Positions 1 to 20,795 of a stretch of DNA of 64,000 nucleotides are shown here, one piece after another. Made by a program: the position numbers and the translations under genes. The stretch spans positions 32,001 through 96,000 of the forward strand of contig CAVTHK010000003.1 in the NCBI GenBank assembly GCA_963734495.1, given 5' to 3'. The notes beneath the pieces are model-generated. The model saw only the letters and a list, made by a program, of their open reading frames with translations. It ran no database searches and was not told the origin of the DNA. The stretch is from an uncultured Spirochaetota bacterium. Lineage in GTDB: Bacteria; Spirochaetota; Spirochaetia; SZUA-6; CAVTHK01. The number at the start of each line of letters is the position of its first letter. The first letter of the stretch is position 1.

Positions 1-1762
1 GCGGACAAGATTTGAGAGATTTGTAAAGGATCATGGATTCTACGGATTCTCAGGTGATCACATTTATTTCAGAGTTGACAGTTCTATAGGTCACAGGCAG
101 GTTGATATAACATACGGGATAAGAAAATTCACAAAAATTGATGAATCAAGCAAGGTCAGCCTTATCCAGCACCCAATTTACAAGGTGAAGAATATTTATA
201 TATATCCCGATTTTATCCCCAAGAACGCTCTTGAAGGAGGTGATTCTTATCTGAAAAGCCTCGATACTACCTTCTACAAAGGTTATTATTTTGTGAGCTC
301 CGGGAAAAAAGAGAGGGTTAAATATGACCTGATACTTCAATCCATGTATCTGAAGCCCGGAGCCACCTATAATTTTACAAATACAGAACAATCACAATCC
401 CACCTTCTTACATTAAAAGTTTACAGGCTTGTAAATATTTATTATAATGAATCATCTCCACCCGGGCCACCACAGGACATTCCGCTCGATCTTAACTGCA
501 ATGTTCAGCTGACCCCGCTGAGCCAGCAGTCATACAAGATTGAACTGGAAGGAACAAATTCTGCCGGCAACATAGGAGGTGCGGTAAACCTGATTTATCA
601 GCATAAGAATCTGTTTCATGGCGCCCAGCTTTTCAGCATGAAGCTTAAAGGCGCACTCGAAGCCCTGGCACAACAAAACACCGAGCTGAAAAAATCAAAA
701 GAATTCGGACTTGAGACAAGTCTCAGGTTTCCTGAATTTCTGCTCCCTTTTATTGAGAAGGAAAAGTTCATTAAAAAGTATAATCCCTCAACAATCATTC
801 TTGCTGCCTATAACTATCAGGATCTTCCCTTCTACACAAGGCTTATGTCTAACGCTACATTTGGGTACGACTGGAAAGCGGGTCCCTATCAGGAACATAT
901 AGTCAGTCCTCTTCAGTTCAACATTGTCAAGATGCTGTCAATTGATCCGGCGTACGAGGCTCAGATTGAATCATCTTCATACCTTGCATATAGCTATAAG
1001 GATGTGATGATACTCGGCGGCAAGTATTCATATATCTATAATAACCAAAAGATAAACAAATCGAAGGATTACTGGTTTCTCAGGGTGAATGCCGAATCAT
1101 CGGGTAATTTGCTTGGATTGGTAAAGAGAGTATCAGGAGCGGCAAAGAATGAGGATGGTACTTATGATTTTCTCAAACAGCCATTTGCTCAGTACATACG
1201 AACGGATCTTGATCTAAGGTACAATTACAAATTCAATTCTGCTGCATCAGCAGTATACAGAGGCTTTTTCGGAATAGGCATTCCATATGGCAATTCAAAG
1301 GCACTACCCTTTGAAAAACAATATTTCAGCGGAGGTTCAAATGGAATACGGGCATGGCAGGTTAGAACCCTGGGTCCGGGATCATTTCTCCAGAGTGATA
1401 CTGTCACGTTCATCAACCAGACAGCTGATATCAAACTGGAGGCCAACGCGGAGTACAGGTTCAAACTTTTCTGGATCCTTGAAGGAGCAGTCTTCGTCGA
1501 TGCTGGCAATATCTGGACCTATAAGGATGATCCCTCAAGACCTGGTGCACAGTTTAAATTAAACAAGTTCTATAAGGATATAGCTGTCGGAACAGGGGCA
1601 GGTCTGCGGTTTGACTTCAATTTTGTGCTGGGAAGAGTTGATCTCGGCATGAAGCTGCGCGATCCGTCTATTCAGAGCGGCTCCAGGTGGATTCCTGTTA
1701 ACGGGGATATTAGCTTCAGAAGAGACTTTGCCATCGTAATAGGAATAGGTTATCCATTCTGA
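1..1762 (+). CDS. BamA/TamA (Omp85) family outer-membrane protein, 5' partial
   Basis: ORF 185-1762 has Omp85 beta-barrel motifs (YFSGGSNGIRAW, VFVDAGNIW, GAGLRFDF) and ends IGIGYPF; upstream sequence looks coding to the window edge. Confidence 0.88.
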   Translation, partial: RTRFERFVKDHGFYGFSGDHIYFRVDSSIGHRQVDITYGIRKFTKIDESSKVSLIQHPIYKVKNIYIYPDFIPKNALEGGDSYLKSLDTTFYKGYYFVSSGKKERVKYDLILQSMYLKPGATYNFTNTEQSQSHLLTLKVYRLVNIYYNESSPPGPPQDIPLDLNCNVQLTPLSQQSYKIELEGTNSAGNIGGAVNLIYQHKNLFHGAQLFSMKLKGALEALAQQNTELKKSKEFGLETSLRFPEFLLPFIEKEKFIKKYNPSTIILAAYNYQDLPFYTRLMSNATFGYDWKAGPYQEHIVSPLQFNIVKMLSIDPAYEAQIESSSYLAYSYKDVMILGGKYSYIYNNQKINKSKDYWFLRVNAESSGNLLGLVKRVSGAAKNEDGTYDFLKQPFAQYIRTDLDLRYNYKFNSAASAVYRGFFGIGIPYGNSKALPFEKQYFSGGSNGIRAWQVRTLGPGSFLQSDTVTFINQTADIKLEANAEYRFKLFWILEGAVFVDAGNIWTYKDDPSRPGAQFKLNKFYKDIAVGTGAGLRFDFNFVLGRVDLGMKLRDPSIQSGSRWIPVNGDISFRRDFAIVIGIGYPF

Positions 1763-1827
1763 TCTGATACTTCCTGATCAAAATATTTTTTATTCCATGC
1801 AGCTTTTTGTCCCTGTAATTTTTTAAA

Positions 1828-2620
1828 TTGCAGTCAGTCGGACTGCATTCTGTGAGAAAACTATTGAACATTCAGCCGGTCAATGACTGGTTTGGGTACA
1901 CGCGTCGTGAGAGGAGATCAACTTTTATTCTGCTGATCATAATCCTTTTAGTAATCCTTGTAAGGTATGCGGTTCCTGAAAAAAACATTGATATTGTGAA
2001 TGCAGTTCCCGGCTATTCTGACAGCTTATGGTTTGCAAAAATTGACTGGGAAGAACAGGCTCATGAAAATATGCCCCTGGGTTTTGATCCCGGTACAGCC
2101 TCATATGATACCCTGTTAAAGATTGGGCCCGTTTCAAGGGAAGTCAAAATCCCTGTCAGCTACAGGAGCGGGGGAGGAAAACTCAGTAAGTATGATTCCG
2201 GGACTTCCCGGCAGTTAAAGATCCGGCTCAATATAAACACCTGTGATACCTCAGCGCTGATTGCTCTTCCGGGGATTGGTCCGGTTCTATCAGTCAGGAT
2301 TATAAAGTACAGGAATCTGCTGGGCGGATTTGCAAGGGTGGAACAGCTTATGGAAGTTTACGGTTTGCCGGAAGAGACTTATCAAATGATCAGGGAAAGA
2401 GTATTTGCTGACAGTTCCGAAGTCAGGAAGACCAGGATTAATTCATCTGATTATAAGGGATTAAGCCGCATCCCTTATATTGAAAAATATGAAGTATCGG
2501 CTATTCTCAAGTACAGGGAGTTGGCTGGCAGGATAAGACAGCATGGATGATCTGAAGGAGAATAAGATTCTTACTCCGGAAAAGGGGAAGAAGATCGGGG
2601 CATATATTGATTTTCAATAA
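1828..2620 (+). CDS. ComEA-like helix-hairpin-helix protein (frameshift near 2535)
   Basis: N-terminal TM, INTCDTSALIALPGIGPVLS..IIKYR..LGGF HhH motif; second frame continues DSMDDLKENKILTPEKGKKIGAYIDFQ to TAA 2618-2620; start uncertain. Confidence 0.8.
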
Positions 2621-2673
2621 ACGGAGTCACCCCATGACCCTCTCTGCTGAGGACACGAACTCACCCCCTGCCC
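2620..2673 (+). repeat. Left REP/BoxC-like repeat family A: partial copy plus 5' part of the interrupted copy
   Basis: AACGGAGTCACCCCATGACCCTCTCTGCTGA then CGAACTCACCCCCTGCCC; continues at 4228 after removing the inserted element; inverted counterpart at 4735-4816. Confidence 0.8.
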
Positions 2674-2779
2674 GATAGCCGTCAACCTAAGGTATCTTAA
2701 AAAAGCTTTGTAGGAGGATCAGTAAACGCAAACGGATCTAAAACTGAAGCTTTATTTATAACTCTCCCCTCCTTTTGAA

Positions 2780-3728
2780 AGTAATTTCCTAGTTTATGGC
2801 AAAATGATTATATTATGGGAAAAAAAATGACATGGAACTAATCAAAATTACTGAGAAGCTTAACACTAAAGGAAAGTGTATGGCTTATCTTGAGAAACAA
2901 AGATGGTCTGATTTGCCCATTTGTCCCTATTGTAATTCAACGAGAAGCTCGAGGAAGACACAGGAGTTCAGGCATACTTGCCATAACTGTAAGAGATCTT
3001 ATAGTGTACTGGTAGGAACAATTTTTGAATCTACCAAGCTTCCAATTACAAAATGGTTTTTTGCCATATGTCTTATATTAAATGCAAAAAAAGGAATATC
3101 ATCTCTTCAACTAGCTAGAGATTTGGATGTTAATAAAAATACTGCCTGGTTTTTGCAGAAGCGAATCCGTAAAGCAATGAAGGATGACAATTCAATCTTA
3201 AGTGGAATAGTAGAGATTGATGAGACCTATGTTGGCGGAAGTATTTCTAATAAGCACTATTTAACAAAGCTTGAATCTGGCAAATATTATAAGTCTGGAA
3301 TGGAGCATATGGTCCCCGTATTGGGGATGATTCAACGAAAAGGTAAAATAATACTAAAAGTACTAGAGAAGGCATCTGGTAAAGAAATAAAACCTTATAT
3401 AAAATCAAAGATCGCATCAGGCAGCACAATAATCACTGACGGGTTTGGTGGATATTACGGGTTAAATGATCATTTTGAAAATCACATAATATTAAATCAC
3501 AAACAAAGCAAAAGAAGTATTAATCAATATAATACGAGTACTCTTGAAGGATTTTGGACCTTAGTCAAAAGATCGTTATTCGGTCAATATCATAAGATTT
3601 CAAAAGTCCATTTACAAGAATATTTAAATGAGCTGGCATTTAAATACAATTATAGAAAAATAAATATGTTTAAATTATTGCTTAACAATCTATTAGAACC
3701 AAAGTATGCCTTTAGCTAGGAAATTACT
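2780..3728 (+). mobile_element. IS1595-family insertion sequence, 949 bp
   Basis: TIRs AGTAATTTCCTAG (13 bp perfect, 21/26 extended) at 2780 and 3728; 8-bp TSD CTTTTGAA at 2772-2779 and 3729-3736. Confidence 0.95.
2832..3719 (+). CDS. IS1595-family DDE transposase
   Basis: Zn ribbon CPYC..CHNC, HTH, VEIDETYVGG, ITDG, NTSTLEGFW, YLNE..F.YN. Confidence 0.95.
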   Translation: MELIKITEKLNTKGKCMAYLEKQRWSDLPICPYCNSTRSSRKTQEFRHTCHNCKRSYSVLVGTIFESTKLPITKWFFAICLILNAKKGISSLQLARDLDVNKNTAWFLQKRIRKAMKDDNSILSGIVEIDETYVGGSISNKHYLTKLESGKYYKSGMEHMVPVLGMIQRKGKIILKVLEKASGKEIKPYIKSKIASGSTIITDGFGGYYGLNDHFENHIILNHKQSKRSINQYNTSTLEGFWTLVKRSLFGQYHKISKVHLQEYLNELAFKYNYRKINMFKLLLNNLLEPKYAFS

Positions 3729-3806
3729 CTTTTGAAGGAGGGGTGGCCGGAGTACTATGCTATTAAAAGAGTTGCAATGCACTGTACCGGCCGGGGTGGT
3801 TGATTT
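3729..3806 (-). repeat. REP-like repeat family B, left copy (hairpin split by IS1595; other arm 2764-2779)
   Basis: Reconstructed minus strand: AAATCAACCACCCCGGCCGG-N36-CCGGCCACCCCTCCTTCAAAAGGAGGGGAG. Confidence 0.85.
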
Positions 3807-3811
3807 GATAT

Positions 3812-3999
3812 TCATATTGATGCTTTTTTATGCTTTTCATTATTGATAACTTTCCTTATCTCATTTTTTAAGTATTGAGGGTCTTTAAACACAAATCTGT
3901 TTTCAAACCTTAATACTGTGAATCCTAAGTAGACCTGTTCCTGAGAGATGATCTGAAGGATTTAAGGCCTTTTATGTTGAAGAGATTTTTGTCTTTCAT
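3812..3999 (-). pseudogene. Internally deleted DUF559 endonuclease gene
   Basis: Minus strand MKDKNLFNIKGLKSFRSSLRNRST joined out of frame at ~3928 to LGFTVLRFENRFVFKDPQYLKNEIRKVINNEKHKKASI*; these match the N- and C-termini of the intact paralog (LKSIRSLARGLR..., GLHILRIKN); catalytic core missing. Confidence 0.8.
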
Positions 4000-4024
4000 A
4001 GATATGAAGGTAAGAAAAAGAAAT

Positions 4025-4166
4025 AAATCAACCACCCCGGCCGGGAAATAAACTTTGTAAACATAAGATAATCAATTGTCCCGGCGCCTTCCCTGCAGCC
4101 TGGCTCCTCCCTAAAATTGCCCACTGGGCAATTTCTTAACGGTCAGCCCCCTTCAAAAGGAGGGGA
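4025..4166 (+). repeat. REP-like repeat family B, right copy with internal palindromic insert
   Basis: AAATCAACCACCCCGGCCGG (4025-4044) is the perfect inverse of 3787-3806; N36; CCGGC; insert; CCCTTCAAAAGGAGGGGA. Confidence 0.85.
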
Positions 4167-4217
4167 AACTTTTTCTAATCTACCCGTTTTAATAATACCC
4201 TTAAGTTGACGGCTATG

Positions 4218-4253
4218 CCCCCTGCCCCCTCTCTGCTGGCGCAAAGAGGGGGT
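4218..4253 (+). repeat. Left REP/BoxC-like repeat family A, hairpin part
   Basis: CCCCCTCTCTGC-TGGC-GCAAAGAGGGGG hairpin. Confidence 0.85.
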
Positions 4254-4319
4254 AAGAACGCTGTGAAAATAGTTCTGGTTAGCCAAACTGGCTGATGTAA
4301 CAATTATAAATTAACATTG

Positions 4320-4712
4320 ATGTCATTAAGAACCTATAATCGGTTAAAGTCAATAAGGTCCCTTGCGAGAGGATTAAGGAAAGAGGCAACTGAATCTGAA
4401 AAACTTTTATGGAAGAGGCTCAGAAACAGACGACTTGCATGCTATAAATTTCTACGTCAGCACCCTGTGATATATAAATCAGATTACACTGGAATGCAAT
4501 TCTTTATTGCAGATTTTTATTGCCACGCTAAAAGAACAGTAATTGAGATAGATGGTCAGGTTCATCTGGAACAGCAGGAATATGATCAGTTCCGGGACGA
4601 AGTTATGGCCGAAAAGGGACTGCATATTTTAAGAATTAAAAATGAGGGGTTATCAGATATGGAAAAGGTCCTTGAAAAAATCGAATCATTTTTGGATTCC
4701 GTCTCTTCATAA
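4320..4712 (+). CDS. DUF559 / Vsr-like (PD-(D/E)XK-type) endonuclease domain protein
   Basis: ARGLRKEATESEKLLW..LRNRRL..YKF.RQHP..FIADFYC...VIEIDG..H...D..RD...GL.ILR..N pattern. Confidence 0.92.
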   Translation: MSLRTYNRLKSIRSLARGLRKEATESEKLLWKRLRNRRLACYKFLRQHPVIYKSDYTGMQFFIADFYCHAKRTVIEIDGQVHLEQQEYDQFRDEVMAEKGLHILRIKNEGLSDMEKVLEKIESFLDSVSS

Positions 4713-4734
4713 CAATATATTAATCAGCCATGTA

Positions 4735-4816
4735 TCCCCCTCTTTGCGTCAGCAGAGAGGGGGATTAAGGGGGTGAGTTCGTTGGACTTAAAGGGATTAA
4801 GGGGGTGAGTCCGTTG
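4735..4816 (-). repeat. Right REP/BoxC-like repeat family A (full plus partial copy), inverted relative to the left copy
   Basis: Revcomp CGAACTCACCCCCTTAATCCCCCTCTCTGCTGACGCAAAGAGGGGG; second partial GGGATTAAGGGGGTGAGTCCGTT. Confidence 0.85.
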
Positions 4817-4978
4817 ATCCCGAAGCCTTATTTGGCTGATCCGTTAAAAATTGTAAATTATTTGGAAACAGTCTTATTATTTCGTAATTTTAATACACAG
4901 AAAACCAAAAAGGGATAAACAGAATTTAATAATCTATTATAAAAAAGAGCATCATGATTAATTTTAATCCATAAAAGT

Positions 4979-5009
4979 TTTGAAAAGAATTTTTCTATTT
5001 CTAACTTTG
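4979..5009 (+). promoter_or_regulatory. Bacteroidota housekeeping promoter for rpsU
   Basis: TTTG (4979-4982), 19 nt, TAACTTTG (5002-5009), matching the -33/-7 consensus. Confidence 0.75.
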
Positions 5010-5038
5010 CGCCTCGTTTAAAAACAGAATTTTAGATT

Positions 5039-5230
5039 ATGATTATTGTACCATTAAAAGAAGGCGAGAATATTGAACGGGCATTAAAGAAGTTCAAGAG
5101 AAAGTTTGAAAAGACTGGAGTAATTCGTGAACTAAGGTCACGTCAGGCTTTTATTAAGCCTTCAGTACGCCGGAGAGAAGAGATCAAGAAGGCTATGTAC
5201 GTTCAGAAGCTGCAGGAAACCGAAGAGTAA
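5039..5230 (+). CDS. rpsU: 30S ribosomal protein S21
   Basis: MIIVPLKEGENIERALKKFKRK...F.KPSV.RR. Confidence 0.97.
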   Translation: MIIVPLKEGENIERALKKFKRKFEKTGVIRELRSRQAFIKPSVRRREEIKKAMYVQKLQETEE

Positions 5231-5284
5231 TTCGGTTGTCCGTGCTCTCATTTATTATTAACAAACAGATACGGGGGTTCCTTC

Positions 5285-6175
5285 ATGAGTTATAAGGAAT
5301 CGTTCTTACAATATCTGCAAATCGAAAAGCGGTATTCACCTCATACTGTCAGGTCTTATTTGAATGATCTGGATCAGTTTTTTTTGTTTTTAACCTCGCA
5401 GGGACAGCCTGCATGATCCGTTTCTGTGACTTCCCATGATATCAGGGCATGGGTGGTCAGCATGCTCGACGGCAACTATTCTGCGGTAAGCGTTCACAGG
5501 AAGATCTCCTGTCTGAGGGTTTTCTACCGTTATCTGAGAAAAGAGGGTGTCATGAAGAGTGATCCGCTTGAAAAGGTGTCCCTGCCAAAAAGGAAAAAGA
5601 GTCTTCCGGTGTTTGTTGAGGAGGGTGCTCTCGATGAATTGCTTGACAATTACAGTTTTGGTGATGATTTTGCAGGCATAAGGAACAGGACAATAATTGA
5701 GATGCTTTATCTGACAGGGATGAGGAGGGCAGAGCTGATTGGTCTCAGGAACAGCGGATGTTGACCTGGCTGAAGGTTCCGTAAAGGTGACCGGAAAAAG
5801 GAACAAGCAGCGGATCATACCTGTTGTGAAGCCGTTTATGGAAAGGCTTAAGGAATATATTAGCCCTGAGGGATAAGGAGATACGCATCAGCGTCTGAAG
5901 GCTGGTTTTTTGTCACCGATCGAGGGAACAAGTTGTATGATAAATATGTTTATAATGTAGTTAACAGGTATCTCGCGATGGTAACTACGATAGAGAAAAA
6001 GAGCCCTCATATACTAAGGCACACTTTTGCCACACACATGCTCAACAGGGGCGCTGATCTGAATTCGATAAAGGAGTTGCTGGGTCATGCAAATCTTTCT
6101 GCGACACAGATTTATACTCATAATACATTTGAGAAACTCAAGAAAATATATAAACAGGCTCATCCGAGAGCTTAA
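5285..6175 (+). CDS. xerC: Tyrosine recombinase XerC (several apparent sequencing frameshifts)
   Basis: [78 protein letters not shown]; rpsU-xerC-hpf context. Confidence 0.9.
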
Positions 6176-6204
6176 ATATTAATCAAAAAAGAGGAGGAAC
6201 TACT

Positions 6205-6505
6205 ATGAACATTCAGATTCATTCAGTTAGGTTTGATGCTGACAAGAAGCTAATCGACTTTGTTCATCAGAAACTGGATAAACTTGCCCAGTTTGGTGAG
6301 GATATTGTAAATGCCGAGGTATATCTCAGGCTTGACAAGGATCAGGATCGTGAAAATAAAATCAGCGAAATTAAGGTGGAGATATCGGGTAGTTCCTTAT
6401 TTGCAAAGAAGCAGAGTAAAACGTTTGAAGAGGCGACTGATGAGGCTATTGATGCTCTTAAGACAGCAGATAACCAGGTATAAGCAAAAGAAGAGAGGTA
6501 TCTGA
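6205..6505 (+). CDS. raiA: Ribosome hibernation factor HPF/RaiA (frameshift ~6460)
   Basis: MNIQIHSVRFDADKKL...LFAKKQSKTFEEATD; tail LRQQITRYKQK in the next frame. Confidence 0.9.
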
Positions 6506-6536
6506 AAAATCTCCTTACAAAAATACCTTGATTTAT

Positions 6537-6568
6537 TTTGAATAATAAAATTTAAATTCATACATTTG
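6537..6568 (+). promoter_or_regulatory. Bacteroidota promoter for the tRNA-tuf operon
   Basis: TTTG (6537-6540), 20 nt, TACATTTG (6561-6568). Confidence 0.75.
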
Positions 6569-6619
6569 CAAACCGTTTTTTGAGGGTTTTTTATGCTCTT
6601 CCGGTGCGTTCTTTAAATT

Positions 6620-6693
6620 GCCGATGTAGCTCAGTTGGCCAGAGCAGCTGATTTGTAATCTGCAGGTCGGGGGTTCGAATCCCTTCATCGGCT
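6620..6693 (+). tRNA. tRNA-Thr(TGT)
   Basis: GCCGATG/CATCGGC acceptor stem, TT-TGT-AA loop, GGTTCGAAT; one anticodon-stem mismatch. Confidence 0.92.
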
Positions 6694-6742
6694 CTTGAAA
6701 GACTTGTAAAAGTGTGTCTTAAGAGTACGACTCTGTTTTATT

Positions 6743-6825
6743 GGGGAGATACCAAAGCGGCCAACTGGGGCAGACTGTAAATCTGCTGGCAAATGCCTTC
6801 GTAGGTTCGAATCCTGCTCTCCCCA
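6743..6825 (+). tRNA. tRNA-Tyr(GTA)
   Basis: GGGGAGA/TCTCCCC stem, GCAGA-CTGTAAA-TCTGC, long variable arm. Confidence 0.96.
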
Positions 6826-6894
6826 CATAAAACAGGATTAACCCGGCAGCAAGGCTGGAATAATTGAAGGAGAGGCTCTTTTGGACGATATTAA

Positions 6895-6967
6895 GCGGGA
6901 GTAGCTCAGTTGGTAGAGCATTAGCCTTCCAAGCTAAGGGTCGCGGTTTCGAGTACCGTCTCCCGCT
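6895..6967 (+). tRNA. tRNA-Gly(TCC)
   Basis: GCGGGAG/CTCCCGC stem, TTAGC-CTTCCAA-GCTAA. Confidence 0.94.
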
Positions 6968-6978
6968 CACTTTTTGAG

Positions 6979-7050
6979 GCCAGAGTAGCTCAGGGGTAGA
7001 GCACTTCCTTGGTAAGGAAGGGGTCGGGGGTTCAATTCCCCCCTCCGGCT
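6979..7050 (+). tRNA. tRNA-Thr(GGT)
   Basis: CTTCC-TTGGTAA-GGAAG anticodon arm, GGTTCAATTCC; one acceptor-stem mismatch. Confidence 0.92.
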
Positions 7051-7110
7051 CAACAGGAAAAAATGATTATGATTGATTATAGATAAACTAAATTTAATAC
7101 GCTTGGAGTT

Positions 7111-8298
7111 ATGGCAAAAGAAAAATTTGACAGGTCGAAACCGCATGTAAATATTGGTACAATTGGTCACGTTGACCATGGAAAAACCACTTTGACGGCA
7201 GCGATCACTATGGTCCTTGCCAAAAGAGGCCTCTCTGAGGTCAGGGATTTTGACTCAATTGATAATGCACCTGAAGAAAAGGAAAGGGGTATTACCATTA
7301 ACACTGCTCACGTTGAATATCAGACTGCGACACGTCACTATGCACACGTTGACTGCCCGGGTCACGCTGACTATATCAAGAATATGGTTACAGGTGCTGC
7401 CCAGATGGACGGTGCAATTCTTGTGGTTGCCGCTGATGACGGTCCAATGCCTCAGACACGTGAACATATCCTTCTTGCACACCAGGTTAACGTACCAACA
7501 GTGCTTGTATTCATGAATAAAGTTGATATGGTTGACGATGAAGAGCTTCTTGAGCTTGTTGAGATGGAGGTTCGTGATCTTCTTAATTTCTATAAATTTG
7601 ACGGCGACAATGCTCCTGTTATCCGTGGTTCTGCTCTTGGTGCAATGCACGGTGAAGCAAAATGGGAAGAAAAAGTTATGGAGCTTATGAATGCTGTTGA
7701 TTCATATATTCCTATTCCTCCGCGTGAAAATGAAAAGCCTTTCCTTATGCCGGTTGAAGACGTATTTTCAATCACCGGCCGTGGTACTGTTGCAACAGGA
7801 CGTATCGAAACAGGTGTTGTTCTTACAGGTGATGAACTTGAACTGATCGGACTCGGTGCTACCAAGCGTAAATCAGTATGTACAGGTGTTGAGATGTTCC
7901 GTAAGATCCTTGACAGGGGTGAAGCTGGCGACAACGTTGGTCTGCTTCTCCGCGGTGTTGACAAGAAAGAGATTAAAAGGGGAATGGTACTTGCCAAACC
8001 AGGTTCAATCACACCTCATACAAAAATCAAGGCTGAGGTTTATGTTCTTAAGAAAGAAGAAGGCGGACGCCATACTCCATTCCATAATAAATACCGTCCT
8101 CAGTTCTACGTAAGGACACTTGATATTACTGGTGAGATCACTCTTCCTGAAGGAACAGAAATGGTTATGCCTGGTGATAATGTTACAATTACAGTTGATC
8201 TTATCTATCCGGTTGCTATCAATGTTGGACTTCGTTTTGCTATCCGCGAAGGCGGCAGAACAGTTGGTGCCGGCCAGGTGACTGAAATTCTGGAATAA
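7111..8298 (+). CDS. tuf: Elongation factor Tu
   Basis: [39 protein letters not shown]. Confidence 0.99.
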
Positions 8299-8320
8299 TA
8301 GGTTTTGGGGATATACCGCT

Positions 8321-8346
8321 AGCGTCACGGTACCGACCGTGACGCT
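8321..8346. other. 11-bp perfect hairpin between tuf and tRNA-Trp
   Basis: AGCGTCACGGT-ACCG-ACCGTGACGCT; no U-tract. Confidence 0.6.
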
Positions 8347-8355
8347 GCAACATAA

Positions 8356-8428
8356 ACGGGTGTAGCTCAGTTGGTAGAGCACTGGTCTCCAAAACCAGGT
8401 GTCGGGAGTTCGAGTCTCTCCTCCCGTG
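8356..8428 (+). tRNA. tRNA-Trp(CCA)
   Basis: CTGGT-CTCCAAA-ACCAG anticodon arm; canonical tuf-trnW-secE position. Confidence 0.95.
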
Positions 8429-8444
8429 CTAAATTACTAGTAAT

Positions 8445-8636
8445 ATGAATATAAAAGGATATTTTCAGGAATCATACACAGAACTCATGCACAAGGTAAC
8501 CTGGCCTACATGGAGCGAGCTTCAGAACAGCGCTGTTCTGGTTATGGTGGCTTCTCTGATCTTTGCTCTTATTGTAGCAGGCATGGATTTTATCTTTAGC
8601 AGGGCAATGCAATTTATTTACAGTTTGTTATACTAA
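8445..8636 (+). CDS. secE: Preprotein translocase SecE
   Basis: ELMHKVTWPTWSEL followed by one TM helix. Confidence 0.96.
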   Translation: MNIKGYFQESYTELMHKVTWPTWSELQNSAVLVMVASLIFALIVAGMDFIFSRAMQFIYSLLY

Positions 8637-8651
8637 CAGGAGAAGATTGCA

Positions 8652-9201
8652 ATGAGTGAGAATATAAAAAGGTGGTATGTGCTTAAGAGCTATCGGCGGG
8701 AAGGAAAAAAAGGTAAAGGAATATATCGATAGTGAAGTTGCACGCCTTAAACTTGAGGAGTATGTCTCACAGGTTCTTATCCCTACCGAAAAGGTTTATC
8801 AGATAAGGGCAGGCAAAAAAATAAGCAAGGAAAGAACATTCTTTCCCGGCTATGTTCTTGTAGAAGCTGTCCTTGTAGGAGAGATTCCGCATCTTCTCAG
8901 AAATGTTCCGAATGTTATCGGATTTCTGGGATCGCAGGATGGAGAACCGGTACCGCTCAGAAAGCCTGAGATAAACCGTATTCTCGGAAAAGTTGATGAG
9001 CTGAATGCAAGCGATGAGGAGCTGAATGTCCCATTCTTCGTAGGCGAATCGGTGAAAGTTATAGATGGTCCGTTCAACAGTTTTACAGGAATAATTGAAG
9101 AGGTGAATGATGAAAAGAAAAAGCTCAAGGTGATGGTTAAGATTTTCGGCAGAAAAACACCTCTTGAGCTTAGTTTTATGCAGGTGGAAAAAGAGAATTA
9201 A
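8652..9201 (+). CDS. nusG: Transcription factor NusG (+1 error near 8683)
   Basis: [11 protein letters not shown] from ATG 8652; FPGYVLV and [14 protein letters not shown]. Confidence 0.96.
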
Positions 9202-9284
9202 CAGAAGATATTGATAGTTGTAATATTCATAATGCTTCCTGAATAACTATCAAGCTCTCGCAATAAATAAGCAAATTTAAAATT

Positions 9285-9725
9285 ATGGCAAAAGAAGTTG
9301 CTGGACTAATCAAGTTACAGATTCGTGGCGGAGGAGCCAATCCATCTCCACCTGTAGGACCCGCACTGGGTTCGAAAGGTGTGAATATTATGGATTTCTG
9401 TAAGCAATTTAATGCGAGGACTCAGGACAAGGCTGGAAAAGTAATACCGGTTGTTATTACGGTTTATGCAGATAAATCGTTCGATTTTGTTACAAAAACA
9501 CCACCGGTTGCCGTACAGCTTCTTGAGGTTGCTAAAGCTAAGAAAGGTTCTCAGGAACCTAACAGAGACAAGGTAGCATCTATTTCCTGGGACCAGGTCA
9601 AAACAATTGCTGCAGATAAAATGGAGGACCTGAACTGTTTTACAGTTGAGTCCGCTATGCGAATGGTAGCTGGAACAGCCAGAAGTATGGGAATCACCGT
9701 CAGAGGAGAATTCCCGGTAAAATAA
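9285..9725 (+). CDS. rplK: 50S ribosomal protein L11
   Basis: [19 protein letters not shown]. Confidence 0.99.
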
Positions 9726-9741
9726 TTAATTAGGAGAAAAA

Positions 9742-10437
9742 ATGACTAAACTTACCAAAAACCAGAAGTCTGCTCTTGAAAAACTCGACAAGGACAGGCT
9801 TTATACATTGAAAGAGGCTTCCTCTCTGGTTAAGGATATGACCAAAACCAAATTTGATGCTTCTGTCGATTTAGATGTAAGGTTAGGAATAGATCCAAGG
9901 AAATCCAATCAGATGGTTCGCGGCGTTGTATCACTTCCTCATGGAACAGGTAAAGAGACACGTGTACTCGTTCTCTGCACCCCCGATAAGGAGGCTGAAG
10001 CAAAGGAAGCCGGAGCCGATTTCGTTGGTCTTGACGATTTTGTCGAAAAGATCAAGGGCGGTTGGACAGATATGGATGTTATTATAACCATGCCATCTGT
10101 TATGGGAAAGGTCGGTCAGTTAGGTCGGATACTCGGTCCGCGCGGACTGATGCCGAACCCGAAAAGTGGTACTGTTACCATGGAAATTGGTAAGGCTGTT
10201 AAAGAAGTGAAGCAGGGTAAGATTGATTTCAAGGTTGATAAAACAGGAATCATTCACGCCTCTATCGGAAAAGTCTCATTTGAGCCTCAGAAGATCGTCG
10301 AAAATGCCAGGGAGTTTATCTCTATTGTAAACAAACTTAAACCGGCTGCTGCAAAAGGAACCTACATCCGTAGCGTATTCCTTTCAAGCACTATGAGTCC
10401 GGGAGTTAAGATCGATCCAAAAGGTCTTGATGATTAA
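9742..10437 (+). CDS. rplA: 50S ribosomal protein L1
   Basis: [21 protein letters not shown]. Confidence 0.99.
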
Positions 10438-10465
10438 TTAGTTATGTTAAATACTTGAAAGAAAA

Positions 10466-10988
10466 ATGAGACGGGAAGAAAAAAATGCTATCATAGACAG
10501 CCTTGCTGAGAGATTCAAAGAGTACAGTCACTTTTATCTGACTGATACTGCTCAGCTTAATGCAGCTGATACAAGTGACCTGAGAAGAAAATGCTTTGAC
10601 AACGATATTAAACTTGTCGTTGTAAAAAACACCCTCCTCAAAAGAGCACTTGAGCAGTCTGAAGTGAACTTTGAAGAACTTTATCCGGTTCTTAAAGGTA
10701 CTACGTCCATCATGTTTACACAATCCGGAAATTCTCCTGCAAAGCTTATTAAGGAATTCCGCAGAAAACATGATAAACCTGTGCTTAAAGGCGCATACGT
10801 TCAGGAATCAGTGTATGTCGGCGATAATATGCTCGACTGCACTTATTTCAGTGAAAACTAAACAGGAACTCATAGGAGATGTTATCATGCTCCTGCAGTC
10901 ACCTGCCAAAAACGTTATTTCAGCCCTGCAATCAGGTGGAACTAAAATTCATGGTGTTCTTGAAACACTATCAAAAAGAGAAGAATAA
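10466..10988 (+). CDS. rplJ: 50S ribosomal protein L10 (+1 error ~10838)
   Basis: VVKNTLLKRAL; C-terminus ELIGDVIMLLQSPAKNVISALQS in the second frame. Confidence 0.96.
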
Positions 10989-11019
10989 TTAAAGTATAAT
11001 CAATTAAAAATCAATAAAA

Positions 11020-11397
11020 ATGGCAGATCTTAAGAAATTTGCAGAAGAACTTGTTAACCTGTCTGTAAAAGAAGTAAACGAACTGGCTAAAATACTTAAA
11101 GATGAGTATGGCATCGAACCTGCAGCCGCAGCTGTTGCTGTTGCCGGACCAGCTGCAAGTAGCGAAGCTGCTGCTGTTGAAGAAAAATCATCATTCGACG
11201 TTATCCTCAAGGCAGCTGGCGGACAGAAATTACAGATTGTTAAACTCGTGAAAGATATCACCGGACTCGGACTGAAAGAAGCCAAGGCAGTAGTTGATGC
11301 TGCTCCTTCTCCGGTTAAGGAAGGTGTTTCAAAAGATGAAGCTGAAGCAATAAAAAGTCAATTAGTAGAAGCAGGAGCTGAAGTTGAACTTAAATAA
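11020..11397 (+). CDS. rplL: 50S ribosomal protein L7/L12
   Basis: [19 protein letters not shown]. Confidence 0.99.
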
Positions 11398-11420
11398 GTT
11401 ATACCTGATTGCTGGGTTAT

Positions 11421-11457
11421 AGGTTTAGTCCCGATTTCACGGGACTAAGCCTTTTTG
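11421..11457 (+). terminator. Intrinsic terminator/attenuator between rplL and rpoB
   Basis: AGGTTTAGTCCCG-ATTTCA-CGGGACTAAGCCT followed by a T-run. Confidence 0.8.
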
Positions 11458-11493
11458 TTCTTTAAATTATAAGTTCACTTAATCTTTTAATAA

Positions 11494-18379
<6,886 letters not shown>

Positions 18380-20795
18380 TGTCGATCGCGTGGAGTTTCC
18401 TGAAGGAGTCGAGGATCTGGAACATCAGGCTTTCGAAGTCGGCGCCGGCCTCGGCGCACTGTCGGCGCAGCGCGACCCATCGGTCGTCCTTGACCCGCTC
18501 TTCCCACTTCTCGTAGGAGATCCGCACGAGACCGCACGCCTCCAGCCCCGGCAGGTTGACACGCCAGGCGTTACCCAGGTCGGAGAGGAGGAGGTATTTC
18601 AGGAGGGTCTTCATGATCTCCTGGAGCGATCTGACGCGGGAATCGAACACCTCTCCGGACTCGGGGATCACCGCATAGTCCGCCAACTTCAGCCCGAGAC
18701 GATCGAAGACTTCGGACTCGACCATGGAGAAGGGGATGGGCCCCTTCTCCCGCAACGCCTTCACGAGGGCGGCTCGGAGTCGGACGGTTGAGATGAAGTC
18801 GTTGAAATGTCCCGACTGCAGGGAGGAATCCTGGCGGTTGTCGGAGAAGCTGAGGAGCTTGGTGTCCTTGTCGGCGAAGCCGAGCCCTTTCATGGCGTCC
18901 AGAATGGCAAGGGAGATGACGGTGGTGGTGGTGGACCTCCCCTCGAGCCCGATGCGGGAGAGTTTGGCGAACTCGCTGGTCTGATGGTGGTAGAGGTCGC
19001 CACTCGTGGGGTCATAGATGAACTTCACGGGGAGGTACCACCCCTTGAGGCCACTGCCCGTGTCAGTGGCGAATCCGTCCCGATACGCGCCGTCGACGAA
19101 GTAGGTAATCTCGGAAGGGAACTTGCCCGAGGTACTCCTTTTTCAGCGTGAGAACACCACCGACCTCGCGCGTGTACTCCGCCGGCAGATTGGCGAGGTC
19201 CTCGTCGGGCCTGCCATGCGTGCTCGTCGCAGAGAAGGTACCCGTACTCGCGACTGTCTTTCTCCTCCTCGGGGAGGCTGTCGTCGCTGAAATCCCGCGC
19301 CTCGAGTCTGCCCTCCGCAAGGTTCTTCTTGACGCAGAGGAACGGCTTTCCCGAGGAGCGGTTGAAAACCACGGGGTACAAAGGATATGTCGTTTCCGCG
19401 ATTGTTCGGGACGGGACCGCCGTCAAAGTCGATCAGCCTCTCGCTTCCCCGGTGGAGAGACACCGAGAGAGAGGCGGTCTGCGCGATGAACTGGTGGAGC
19501 TTGAAGGGCAGGACGAATGCAGGCCGGGAGGTCGGGTCGGTGTGTTCCCTCGCAATCCTCTCGTTCACCGCGGCAATCCGAGTGAACAGGGATTCGAGCG
19601 ACGCGCGACATGCGGTCTCATTCCGGCCCGACGCCTCCCGAAGGAGCAAGCACATCTCGCTCGCGGTCCTGGCAGGTCCGCGCTGATAGCCGCTACCATC
19701 CGGCGTCAGGGCCACCACACGCTCGACCCACCGAAAGAGGGGGGCGGCGCACAGCTCCTCCGCGCTTGCCGCGGCCGTCGGTGTGTCGATAGCCGCCGCG
19801 AGCTCCTCGGACCCGGGGTTCGGATGGCGGACCGAGATGGCCGTCAGCGATTCCTCGATCACCTGAGCCGGCGTAAAGCGGTCACCGAAGAAGGTTGTTG
19901 CCACTTCGGCGACACGGGTCTTGCGATCCGCCGAGGTCGCGCCGCCGGTCATCGTGGCCGATGTTCCGATGCAGACGATCGGATGCGCGCACTCCGCCTT
20001 GATCCGGCGGATGAGCAGCGCGACGTCCGCGCCCTGCCGACCTCGGAAGGTGTGAAGCTCGTCGAATGCGATGAACTTCAGATTCTTGAAGATAGCTTCC
20101 CTGATATCGGAGTCTCTCTGCCGAGTCAGGATCAGCTCGAGCATCATGTAGTTGGTGAGGAGGACATGGGGAGGCGCGTTCCGCATGGTGTCCCGCTTGT
20201 CCTCCTCCTCCTGCCCGGTGTACTGGCCGAATGAGAAGGGGAAATCCCGATGCGTACTCGCCTTATAGCGCTCCGCGTACTTTTCGATCTCACCCGTCTG
20301 CGAATTGATGAGCGCATTCATGGGATAGCAGACAAGACCGACGACGCCCGGGCCGGGGTGTCGCAGTATCTCGTTGAAGATCGTGCCGAAGAACGTGAGC
20401 GACTTGCCCGAGCCCGTGCCCGAGGTCACGACGAAACCTTTGCCGGCAGCCCCCAGGCGAAGCGCTTCCTCCTGGTGTCGGTGCAACGTAAACCCCGAGA
20501 AGACAGATGCCATTGCGGGCTCAAGAACCCCCTCGGTCACCAGGGACTCGATGCGTGCGCCGGGTTCATACGACGGATTGAACTGGATCAAGGGCTCGGG
20601 CCACATCGTCTTGAGCCTGCCCTCATCCTGCAAGGCAGCTTCGATCTGAGGGTCGTCGATGTCGATGAAGCTACGGGAGAACGACTGGTACCGGTCCATC
20701 ACGTCCCGGTGGAACCGGAAGACGTCGGTTGTTGGAGTCACGGCCGGATTCTCCTTTGGCGCCACATCAGCTTCGTTCACTGCCCGTCCGGGCAT
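18380..20795 (-). CDS. Large SF2 DEAD/DEAH-box helicase (MrfA/DUF1998/DruE-like family), frameshifted and 3' truncated at the junction
   Basis: [59 protein letters not shown]; spread over ORFs 19143-20795, 19025-19426, 19063-19320 and 18240-19028. Confidence 0.85.

Follow-up and report, generated by a model that had tools for sequence, protein, structure and literature searches.

Nested DUF559 nuclease cassettes framed by inverted hairpin-and-tail repeats: a candidate family of small selfish units in a Spirochaetota genome

Results

The window analysed here, 64,000 nucleotides of a contig from an uncultured Spirochaetota bacterium (CAVTHK010000003.1, positions 32,001 to 96,000), contains a repeat complex that fills the spacer between comEA and rpsU (2621-4816) as nested elements. 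Neighbouring open reading frames identified by Pfam include comEA (HHH_3), an IS1595 transposase and rpsU (S21). The true 3' end of comEA lies at 2543-2620 on the forward strand, in a frame that differs from that of the open reading frame 1828-2550; its translated C-terminus resembles the C-termini in relatives' spacers, and because its stop codon is the TAA at 2618-2620, the repeat complex begins at the immediately adjoining base. The arrangement exceeds chance: across the 50.4 kb of the contig that are low in GC, the repeat motifs are confined to this spacer, and the module finder gave no hit in 20 shuffles of window positions 1-18000. Since the host contig is chimeric, all genome-wide repeat counts given below come from related genomes and none from the host assembly.

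The best explanation of the spacer is a four-level nest of insertions. Its outermost level would be an old hairpin, now in two halves, together with its tails (2621-2650 and 4790-4814). The left partial module (2621-2650) holds C-rich tail #1 (2621-2633) and a half-hairpin limited to the C-arm (2638-2650); the right one (4790-4816), which mirrors it, holds a G-arm remnant (4790-4795) that is joined through an ATTAA loop to G-rich tail #1 (4801-4814), and together these outer partial copies of repeat A form the inverted pair 2617-2633 and 4802-4818.

Cassette A, the putative second level, consists of tail, hairpin, intact DUF559 gene, hairpin and tail. Its left end (2655-2673) is made up of C-rich tail #2 (2655-2669) and loop-2 bases, and in its left hairpin A (4225-4252) a C.A mismatch interrupts the stem of 12 bp. 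The gene, on the forward strand at 4320-4712 (start at 4317 or 4320; 130 amino acids), is followed by the right module (4736-4782), which runs from hairpin A' (4736-4763), where the mismatched pair is T.G, through an ATTAA loop 2 to G-rich tail #2 (4768-4782), and which is the sole strict triplex-type module that the module finder reported in the low-GC segment. The two tails #2 are complementary at 15 of 15 positions, the hairpin copies are inverted about the gene (4225-4263 and 4725-4763, 39 nt, 85% complementary), and each hairpin copy folds as single-stranded DNA (z -2.6 to -5.2). The earlier note's description of an intact DUF559 gene between inverted copies of repeat A, with partial copies outside, holds at every position; repeat A does bracket the gene on both sides, but on the left the 1.5 kb of element B intervene between tail and hairpin. 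An uninterrupted tail-TG-hairpin form of this left module is present at two other homologue loci (L037 and L019).

Element B (2674-4217), a decayed B-type DUF559 cassette, would form the third level. It has terminal inverted repeats of about 19 nt (2674/2675-2692 and 4199-4216/4217; 18 nt inverted at 94%) and is inserted in loop 2 of A's left module, where the 10-bp duplication CCCCCTGCCC is found at 2664-2673 and 4218-4227. A 144-nt relative in a related genome (G413:C229) has identical ends, and exact 10-bp duplications are present in both complete copies, that of the window and this one; near-identical copies of element B occur in other contexts in metagenome runs X1-X4. In its terminal inverted repeats and 10-bp duplication, element B bears the usual marks of an insertion of the transposase type.

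The fourth level would be the IS1595-family insertion sequence (2780-3728, forward strand) in the loop of B's left hairpin. Its ends, 2780-2801 and 3707-3728, are inverted over 22 nt at 86%, and its transposase (open reading frame 2832-3719) matches Pfam DDE_Tnp_IS1595 (E 2.1e-37) and an N-terminal zinc ribbon (E 1e-6). The insertion is flanked by the 8-bp target duplication CTTTTGAA at 2772-2779 and 3729-3736, of the length typical of this family, and splits left hairpin B into its 5' arm and loop (2766-2779) and its 3' arm (3735-3743). The remainder of B's left module (3729-3802) continues from that arm through a 45-nt spacer, which folds into a small hairpin of its own, to G-rich tail B (3793-3802); this tail mirrors the purine arm of hairpin B, a layout shared by the intact B-type cassettes at L135, L136 and L141. 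On the far side of the gene remnant, the B right module (4030-4166) has C-rich tail B (4030-4038), from which a 105-nt spacer leads to a degenerate hairpin B' (4148-4166) whose fold is no better than that of shuffled sequences (z -0.42).

The DUF559 remnant of element B (3812-3999, reverse strand), recognisable over no more than its 30-45 C-terminal residues, is real: B-type homologues match 3836-3961 by tblastn with E values down to 4e-9. Relative to copies in other metagenomes it has a deletion of about 203 nt at 3926, and contig record 29 of run X4 has 203 additional letters at 3925/3927. The remnant is framed by a perfect 20-nt inverted pair (3787-3806 and 4025-4044), with the hairpin B copies outside it (2766-2779 with 3729-3743, and 4148-4166), as expected from the claim that a divergent remnant lies between inverted copies of a second repeat. 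The repeats that the earlier note named A and B are therefore both real, and both combine a hairpin with a tail as it proposed, but it overlooked the IS1595 element, and the orientation is not shared, the B layout being the reverse of A's, with tails facing the gene and hairpins outside.

The cassette A protein matches Pfam PF04480 (E 6.6e-27; 94 bits against a cut-off of 20.6) over residues 13-126 of 131. It also matches PDB entry 3hrl (E 7.8e-10), which comes first in a Foldseek search with the AlphaFold2 model (pLDDT 86; E 4e-5), ahead of the Vsr-like homing endonuclease I-Bth0305I (3r3p), and the protein is thus predicted to have a Vsr-like, PD-(D/E)XK-type nuclease fold. Among 22 homologues 22 columns are invariant, including D65, E76, D78 and H82, which we take from the family motif to be candidate catalytic residues. 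The modelled fold, together with the label "very-short-patch-repair endonuclease" that JGI gives to several homologues, would suit an ordinary Vsr-type repair enzyme lying amid unrelated intergenic repeats. We consider this reading, which the earlier note also set aside, very improbable: the Vsr family PF03852 gives no hit to the protein at E <= 0.1, no cytosine-5 methyltransferase is found among the four neighbouring open reading frames scanned, and the reading is contradicted by the enrichment of flanking repeats at homologue loci and by the empty sites in relatives, both described below.

The framing of DUF559 genes extends well beyond the window. Flank inverted-repeat scores reach at least 40 at 51 of 70 homologue loci (median 55; shuffled flanks average 17.5) and at 3 of 47 control open reading frames from the same contigs (median 19). 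The homologue loci have one architecture in common, inverted hairpin-and-tail modules that bracket the DUF559 gene. Among 97 DUF559 genes with flanks of at least 150 nt, the module finder placed a strict module within 350 nt of 72 and a canonical inverted pair at 44; the 267.5 kb of sequence situated beyond 500 nt of every DUF559 gene holds 9 modules. The majority of divergent DUF559 genes in host-family genomes carry modules too, each with its own sequence, and protein similarity tracks flank similarity (Mantel r 0.767; none of 499 permutations as high), in line with the proposal that each nuclease variant has its own cognate repeat. These comparisons support the view that the DUF559 genes of the cassette A clade are regularly framed by inverted hairpin-and-tail repeats, and that each protein lineage has a repeat sequence of its own. 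Gene and repeats have diverged together. Co-variation of this sort is also what simple linkage predicts for gene and repeats that are inherited together.

The modules keep short, nearly fixed distances from the gene, about 45-60 nt upstream of the start and about 25 nt downstream of the stop. Such spacing, along with a downstream hairpin whose 12-bp stem is paired throughout on the sense strand when G.U counts as a pair, could mean that the modules act in cis on expression, for example as insulators, terminators or mRNA-end stabilisers, and isolate a potentially toxic nuclease gene from surrounding transcription, with mobility incidental. We regard this as improbable, because no T-runs follow the modules of the window, gene-less pairs, solitary modules and arrays occur at a distance from any DUF559 gene, the mirror tail would be left without a role, and, as quoted in the available text of Holder et al. 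(2015, PMC4666352), earlier work found PIT elements to lack promoter or terminator activity.

Two features of module design stand out. At 117 hairpin-A sites the fourth pair from the loop is a C/A or T/G mismatch in 109, and the second pair alternates between G/C (63) and A/T (50); a switching second pair beside a kept mismatch suggests a structural constraint on hairpin A. B-type hairpins are perfect, with no mismatch, so that a T.G mark would not be universal. As for the tail, a mirror-tail rule accounts for 122 of 556 readings, against 62 for a direct-copy rule and 28 for a displaced one, a modest margin. The right module of cassette A (4736-4782) has the class II purine-motif layout, in which C-arm and G-arm are followed by a tail in mirror order to the G-arm (G.G, A.A or T.A), and by eye so does hairpin B, with G-arm AAGGAGGGG and tail GGGGTGGTT. 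The resemblance to BoxC repeats that the earlier note pointed out extends to the class II triplex layout of TM_ECO, but the exact TM_ECO pattern, given in the available text as CCCTCNCCC N3-6 GGGNGAGGG N3 GGGNGAGGG (PMC4666352), has no match within the window. In E. coli K-12 the gene ycjD, the sole DUF559 gene annotated in the 8-kb stretch examined, is followed after 167 nt by one exact TM_ECO motif.

The unit has been gained and lost at otherwise conserved sites. The comEA-rpsU spacers of five relatives, sought out as the earlier note had advised, are empty (270-330 nt), and that of G478 holds a different DUF559 cassette; the empty sites are too diverged to define a target. Similarly, G413 carries a mini-cassette upstream of gmk that G498, G501 and G494 lack. 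Gene-less miniature copies and tandem arrays exist as well: mini-cassettes, solitary modules and tandem arrays occur in related genomes far from any DUF559 gene, and G451 has a 285-nt element, also gene-less, that shows duplications of about 11 bp. The duplications of element B and of this G451 element are of a kind typical of a transposase acting in trans. Target duplication is absent at A-type ends, where across 67 tail-bounded spans the longest direct repeat in the flanks averages 5.18, against 4.87 for permuted pairs. Neither cassette A nor cassette B encodes an HUH or DDE transposase, the sole local transposase being that of IS1595.

Repeat copies number tens per genome in relatives, not hundreds, with 26 dispersed sites in G413 and 10 in G451. 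The 10 genomes that hold an A-type gene have more repeat matches than the 20 that lack one (Mann-Whitney p 0.0017, kinship and genome size uncorrected), as the earlier note expected, but repeats also occur where no DUF559 gene is hit: hairpin-A repeats at 7 sites in G419, where both the Pfam model and the window protein find none, and 17 and 15 mini-cassette matches in G488 and G502, where the window protein has no hit at E <= 1e-8. These genomes fit a rather unlikely alternative in which the nuclease is a passenger and the modules are repeats, prone to recombination or mobilised by a transposase (MITE-like, or H-DNA hotspots), that host or other enzymes spread, with DUF559 genes accumulating between modules or riding along while they do another job such as defence, repair or addiction. 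The inverted ends and 10-11 bp duplications of element B and the G451 element point the same way, as does the position of all three nested insertions of the window in module loops, which implies that unrelated elements, IS1595 among them, use modules as targets; in the available text of Holder et al., TM_ECO sites are tied to local rearrangement, with no mobility genes reported nearby (PMC4666352). Against a passenger role, however, the gene between modules is always a DUF559, modules are nearly absent away from DUF559 genes on the same contigs, module sequence is specific to each protein lineage (including the two adjacent in the window), A-type ends lack target duplication and the candidate catalytic residues are invariant.

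Discussion

Taken together, our analysis favours placing both cassettes in a widespread and apparently undescribed family of small selfish units, and literature searches found no paper that reports a pairing of DUF559 with hairpin repeats. The unit would be a Vsr-fold DUF559 gene that travels with two inverted structured modules, each a G/C-rich hairpin with a tail mirroring its purine arm, in the intrastrand-triplex design of BoxC/PIT/TM_ECO repeats. Close to the earlier note's proposal that DUF559 mobilises or amplifies this repeat class, we infer that the nuclease works on the repeats of its own cassette and would recognise the folded ends of its own lineage; the link of nuclease to repeat is one of association. 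Vsr-type enzymes nick at T:G mismatches, and for this reason the conserved T.G/C.A mismatch in the extruded A-type hairpin is a candidate recognition mark, at which the nuclease may nick. Host break repair or recombination could then copy, delete, duplicate or relocate the unit, the outcome being a homing-like, nuclease-only spread that would resemble REP-RAYT in layout and differ from it in chemistry. We give this explanation as a whole, from own-lineage nicking through spread by host repair to the nest, an even chance of being right.

A broader reading, which we advance only tentatively and regard as doubtful, is that, throughout the bacteria, DUF559 nucleases are the missing partners of BoxC/PIT/TM_ECO repeats, nicking their own folded repeat, driving nuclease-only mobile elements and leaving loops that become landing sites. 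Each lineage would recognise its own hairpin, mirror tail and, in A-type units, the maintained T.G mismatch; spread through host repair would seed gene-less miniature copies; and the single-stranded loops of the modules would receive further insertions, as in the four-level nest. If true, this would define a new type of selfish element that uses a hydrolytic Vsr-fold nuclease in place of a transposase, and would help to explain rearrangement hot spots at sites with repeats of this type. At a practical level, DUF559 cassettes inflate intergenic regions, lie nested within each other and, when annotated as "very short patch repair" genes, can be misleading.

Among known systems, RAYT HUH transposases are likewise flanked by inverted REP repeats. 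The REP/REPIN-RAYT system shares with the cassettes one small enzyme gene bracketed by inverted copies of a short imperfect palindrome, a separate repeat for each enzyme lineage, scattered gene-less copies that are often inverted pairs (a dispersal seen here in related genomes) and, at A-type ends, the absence of target duplication. In contrast, the enzyme here is a DUF559 protein with a predicted Vsr-fold, a hydrolytic nuclease and not an HUH Y1 transposase, so that strand transfer by the nuclease alone would be impossible; the repeats carry a mirror tail of triplex-type design, and copy numbers stay in the tens. A-type cassettes also resemble IS200/IS605 elements in their subterminal imperfect hairpins without target duplication, but encode neither an HUH nor a DDE transposase, while the miniature gene-less derivatives recall MITEs, as does element B with its terminal inverted repeats and 10-bp duplication.

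The Vsr-like EDxHD homing endonucleases, represented by I-Bth0305I, the second-best structural match of our model, offer a precedent for a nuclease-only selfish gene that spreads by host break repair, and spread of that kind would fit the absence of target duplications at A-type ends. We know of no homing endonuclease gene with a structured inverted-repeat frame or miniature gene-less copies, both of which the cassettes have.

Repeats of the BoxC/PIT/TM_ECO type have been known since the 1990s, and DUF559 is a very large nuclease family to which, to our knowledge, no role has been assigned. In the available text of Holder et al. (2015, PMC4666352), these repeats occur in hundreds of genomes without a known origin, function or associated protein; the main text contains neither "endonuclease" nor "ycjD", and reports no associated gene and no mobility functions nearby. 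The modules described here differ in their 12-bp stems with a conserved mismatch and are triplex-type by sequence. They share, in the same text (PMC4666352), the succession of C-rich arm, loop, G-rich arm, short loop 2 and mirroring G-rich stretch, the occurrence as inverted pairs with a patchy distribution among close relatives, and the loop-2 sequences TTA (here at L008) and CCG (at L007). The cassette family may thus supply a long-orphan class of bacterial repeats with a partner enzyme, and a specific, co-varying pairing would give DUF559 nucleases and BoxC/PIT/TM_ECO-type repeats each a testable function.

Anatomy of the comEA–rpsU spacer

The DUF559 cassette is a real unit, one that recurs and, on an evolutionary timescale, is mobile. 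Dissecting the nested layers of the comEA–rpsU spacer (2621–4816) confirms and refines what the earlier note had observed. comEA ends at a TAA stop (2618–2620), past an apparent frameshift near 2540, and the repeat complex begins at the next base. Cassette A, the intact unit, is bracketed by inverted modules, each made of a hairpin, a loop 2 and a G/C-rich tail: it runs from a left tail (2655–2669) and left hairpin (4225–4252) through the DUF559 gene (4320–4712) to a right hairpin (4736–4763) and right tail (4768–4782), with the two tails mutually complementary at 15/15 positions. Around it lies an outer layer that comprises, on the left (2621–2650), a C-rich tail and only the C-arm half of a hairpin, mirrored on the right (4790–4814) by a G-arm remnant, a loop and a G-rich tail. 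From these two mirrored halves we infer that cassette A was inserted in an older hairpin. Mirrored half-hairpins with tails also lie outside cassettes at loci L018, L041, L056 and L058; together with the window pair, they give the appearance of cassettes inserted into older hairpin loops, or of palindromes extending outward step by step.

Between the left tail and left hairpin of cassette A sits element B (2674–4217), a decayed second DUF559 cassette with repeats of its own. It has inverted ends of roughly 19 nt and lies between two identical 10-bp sequences in direct orientation, CCCCCTGCCC (2664–2673 and 4218–4227); the intact target form, tail-TG-hairpin, is present in loci L037 and L019. 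Its interior holds one hairpin B per side, inward-facing G- and C-rich tails (3793–3802 and 4030–4038) and, on the minus strand, a DUF559 remnant of which only the C-terminal 30–45 residues are recognizable (E 4e-9). An IS1595-family element (2780–3728) has in turn inserted into the left hairpin B, within its loop, and is flanked by 8-bp duplicates, CTTTTGAA. By our reading, all three nested insertions (n = 3) lie in module parts predicted to be unpaired, namely a hairpin loop, loop 2 and again a hairpin loop. Separately, a 14-nt exact direct repeat, GATGATCTGAAGGA, has one copy in the comEA frameshift region (2546–2559) and the other in the DUF559 remnant (3947–3960), close to the remnant's deletion; the estimated chance expectation is about 0.01–0.03 occurrences in 2.7 kb.

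The DNA that carries this complex differs from the rest of its assembly. The window's first ~18.4 kb have about 40–46% GC and hold Bacteroidota-type housekeeping genes (comEA, rpsU, a xerC/D-like gene, tuf and rpoC); the remainder, and every other assembly contig, have 66–69% GC. The switch, from about 0.45 to about 0.62–0.7, falls at 18200–18600 (about 50,200–50,600 of contig C3, from which the window is taken) within a truncated rpoC whose match to Rpb1 domain 5 stops at position 120 of the 267-position model. C3, low-GC and Bacteroidota-like only over its first ~50 kb, therefore appears to be a chimera joining DNA of two organisms; the assembly does not represent the host in which the finding lies and is useless for genome-wide repeat counts. 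Within the 50.4-kb low-GC part, the comEA–rpsU spacer is the sole site of these repeats. The nearest genomes among those searched, all in the family of genome G001, share 62–67% identity with the window over the comEA C-terminal domain. Reading frames are split in comEA near 2540, in the xerC/D-like recombinase (three ORFs, 5285–6175) and in rpoC (16640/16645), and both comEA and the recombinase are intact in relatives, which suggests assembly indel errors or decay and calls for caution over single-base details of the repeats.

Recurrence of the bracketed layout

The idea that DUF559 genes are bracketed by inverted hairpin repeats extends well beyond the window. Our sample combined 6 genome loci, from a single-protein search of genome contigs, with the best 80 of 478 confirmed metagenome loci from an alignment-based scan, the closest metagenomic relatives of the window protein reaching 85% identity. 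For the 70 loci (69 plus the window) with at least 120 nt on each side, the best inverted-repeat score between 250-nt flanks had a median of 55, against a mean of 17.5 for shuffled flanks and a median of 34 for mismatched locus pairs; scores of at least 40 were reached by 51/70 DUF559 loci vs 3/47 control ORFs of the same contigs (control median 19). The consensus cassette reads CATGAACTCACCCCC, 2–6 nt, a 12-bp hairpin, about 45–60 nt, the gene, about 25 nt, the inverted hairpin, 2–5 nt and GGGGGTGAGTTCATG.

A module finder that required 8-nt triples with at most one mismatch and a loop 2 of 1–8 nt placed a module within 350 nt of 72/97 DUF559 genes with flanks of at least 150 nt, and a canonical outward-facing pair at 44/97. 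Only 9 modules turned up in the 267.5 kb lying >500 nt from any DUF559 gene, of which 8 belong to arrays adjoining two DUF559 genes and 1 lies beside a partial gene. DUF559 genes are present in 43/81 sampled genomes of G001's family, at 1–8 per genome, and most of the roughly 30 loci inspected there carry inverted hairpin-and-tail modules of lineage-specific sequence; at a few of them (L090, L121, L130 and L143) there is no signal beyond that of shuffles. Intact units of the B-type lineage, whose modules face inward and whose loop 2 holds a small additional hairpin, occur at L129, L132, L133, L135, L136 and L141. Two DUF559 homologues (P0013 and P0020) are labelled 'leucyl-tRNA synthetase' by JGI.

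Nuclease lineages and their repeats

Each nuclease lineage has its own repeats, as the earlier note had proposed: over 85 genes, each encoding a unique protein, the more alike the proteins, the more alike the flanks (Mantel Spearman r 0.767, reached by 0/499 permutations, shared ancestry being ignored). Such co-variation is also expected from simple linkage, which the Mantel test cannot separate from co-adaptation. The corresponding expectation, that repeats should be more numerous where the gene is present, holds in part. In the genus of genome G413, with this query genome left out and an A-type gene defined by at least 49% identity to the window protein, repeat matches number 4–51 in the 10 genomes with such a gene vs 0–17 in the 20 without (Mann–Whitney p 0.0017, shared ancestry ignored). 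However, repeats also occur in genomes that yielded no DUF559 match: G419 has 7 hairpin-A sites and no match with either query, and G488 and G502, with 17 and 15 mini-cassette matches, have none to the window protein at E <= 1e-8.

Gain, loss and insertion in related genomes

Comparison of comEA–rpsU spacers uncovered the empty sites that the earlier note had proposed to look for: in five relatives (L111, L112, L117, L118 and L119) the spacer is empty and repeat-free, spanning 269–326 nt from the aligned comEA end to rpsU, comEA tail included. In a further relative (L114) it is 729 nt long and lacks DUF559. In genome G478 (L110, C2), the same spacer holds a different DUF559 cassette (35% identity) with its own repeats, which include triplicated tail units on both sides, and the whole cassette is flanked by a 23-nt direct repeat, TTAAGAAACCCATGCCCGGTGTT, that is also the 5' arm of a long hairpin occurring once in L114.

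The repeats have spread unevenly. The hairpin-A pattern is found in 8/81 family genomes (G413, 26 sites; G451, 10; G001, G407 and G419, 7 each; G482, 5; G468 and G483, 1 each), and a reversed control pattern in none of the 81. Gene-less mini-cassettes (tail, hairpin, 10–55 nt, hairpin, tail) lie at many sites (L150–L155, L167 and L168), with 0 to 51 matches per genome across the 31 genomes of G413's genus. G451 carries at least 6 near-identical gene-less elements of ~285 nt with a module pair (L157, L159, L160, L162, L163 and L164), which have outer inverted ends ATGAGTATC..., extra inserts at both loop-2 positions and, in some copies, AT-rich duplications of about 11 bp. Tandem arrays occur in G419 (L156, C1:35300–37100), with 7.3 copies of a 167-nt unit bearing one module each, and in G482 (L169, C13:177900–180500), where a complete DUF559 cassette of 510 bp is present four times in a row (98.9% identity at this period) and its left and right modules are unlike in sequence. 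The spacer upstream of gmk contains a mini-cassette in G413 and none in G498, G501 or G494, and is too diverged between species to resolve the insertion site to the exact nucleotide. Four public metagenome runs (X1–X4) cover IS1595 and element B at 88–100% identity in other contexts, and one run contig has 203 extra letters precisely at the deletion point of the DUF559 remnant. All of these contigs are short, with some joints seen on a single contig, and their coverage excludes the cassette A gene, comEA and rpsU, which makes the runs uninformative on whether populations carry or lack cassette A.

Direct repeats at A-type ends reveal no target duplication beyond chance (mean longest flank repeat 5.18 over 67 spans vs 4.87 for permuted pairs), which argues against staggered-cut transposition and fits repair-mediated or single-strand routes. 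In the window, cassette A has GGAC next to each end; at 4 nt, this is too short to be called a target duplication. Element B is marked differently: inverted ends and a perfect 10-bp duplication are found in the window copy as well as in a 144-nt relative (G413:C229), and both were inserted in C/G-runs of a module. These features suggest that some derivatives may be moved in trans by a transposase, and they are the main support for the rival view that the nuclease is a passenger that merely rides along.

The alternative, that the nuclease acts on the repeats, is the best-supported reading, and we give it about an even chance. The window protein matches DUF559, while the Vsr family model is not matched; it also matches PDB 3hrl, and its AlphaFold2 model (pLDDT 86) has 3hrl as its first structural match and the Vsr-like homing endonuclease I-Bth0305I as its second. 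The candidate catalytic residues D65, E76, D78 and H82 are invariant across 22 homologues. DUF559/YcjD has been placed in the Vsr branch of the PD-(D/E)XK nucleases (Steczkiewicz et al., PMC3424549; PMC1189080). Since an enzyme of the DUF559 type cuts DNA by hydrolysis and is unable to join strands, any movement must rely on host repair.

Repeat design and comparison with E. coli triplex-type repeats

The window hairpins fold on both strands (z −2.6 to −5.2). Across 117 hairpin-A sites, from 80 metagenome loci and the window, the fourth pair from the loop is C/A (61) or T/G (48), the same mismatch on either strand, and Watson–Crick C/G at only 2/117; the second pair is G/C (63) or A/T (50), an alternation indicating that pairing is held by compensatory change. 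Hairpin A nevertheless retains one mismatch that a single mutation would repair. A T.G mismatch as a universal recognition mark is ruled out by the B-type hairpins, which are perfectly paired. The tail mirrors the purine arm under a G.G / A.A / T.A rule and varies together with it, arm AGAGGGGG going with tail GGGGGTGA, GAAGGGGG with GGGGGATG and AAGGAGGGG with GGGGTGGTT. Counted hairpin-first, the mirror rule fits 122/556 strand readings; a direct-copy rule fits 62 and a displaced window 28, the excess being modest because G-runs fit several rules together.

The exact pattern of TM_ECO, the E. coli triplex-type repeat, has 0 matches in the window, and Rfam returned no family match for 2400–5100 at E <= 1. 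In E. coli K-12 itself, ycjD is followed at a distance of 167 nt by an exact TM_ECO (L097, NC_000913.3 1351030–1351840); with 23 such motifs reported in 4.64 Mb (PMC4666352), simple arithmetic puts the chance of one within ±350 nt of a given gene at about 0.005. The same paper counts 29 motifs in one E. coli strain but a single one in another. The last ~50 nt of ycjD are duplicated once downstream and its stop codon overlaps a partial hairpin, which together look like what is left of a second cassette end. In the main text of Holder et al. (PMC4666352), a term search finds 'endonuclease' and 'ycjD' 0 times, and the authors state that they found no mobility functions near TM_ECO. Among the papers listed in literature searches confined to non-subscription sources, none mentions a DUF559–repeat link in its title or abstract opening.

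In its design, the window's tail-mirrors-purine-arm layout is that of the class II purine motif described for TM_ECO, also known as BoxC or PIT (Holder et al., PMC4666352). The likeness extends to loop 2, which often reads TTA or ATTAA on one side and CCG or CGG on the other (L007, L008 and others): T-T-A and C-C-G are the loop types by which TM_ECO is divided into types A and B, and these also pair as A+B in E. coli.
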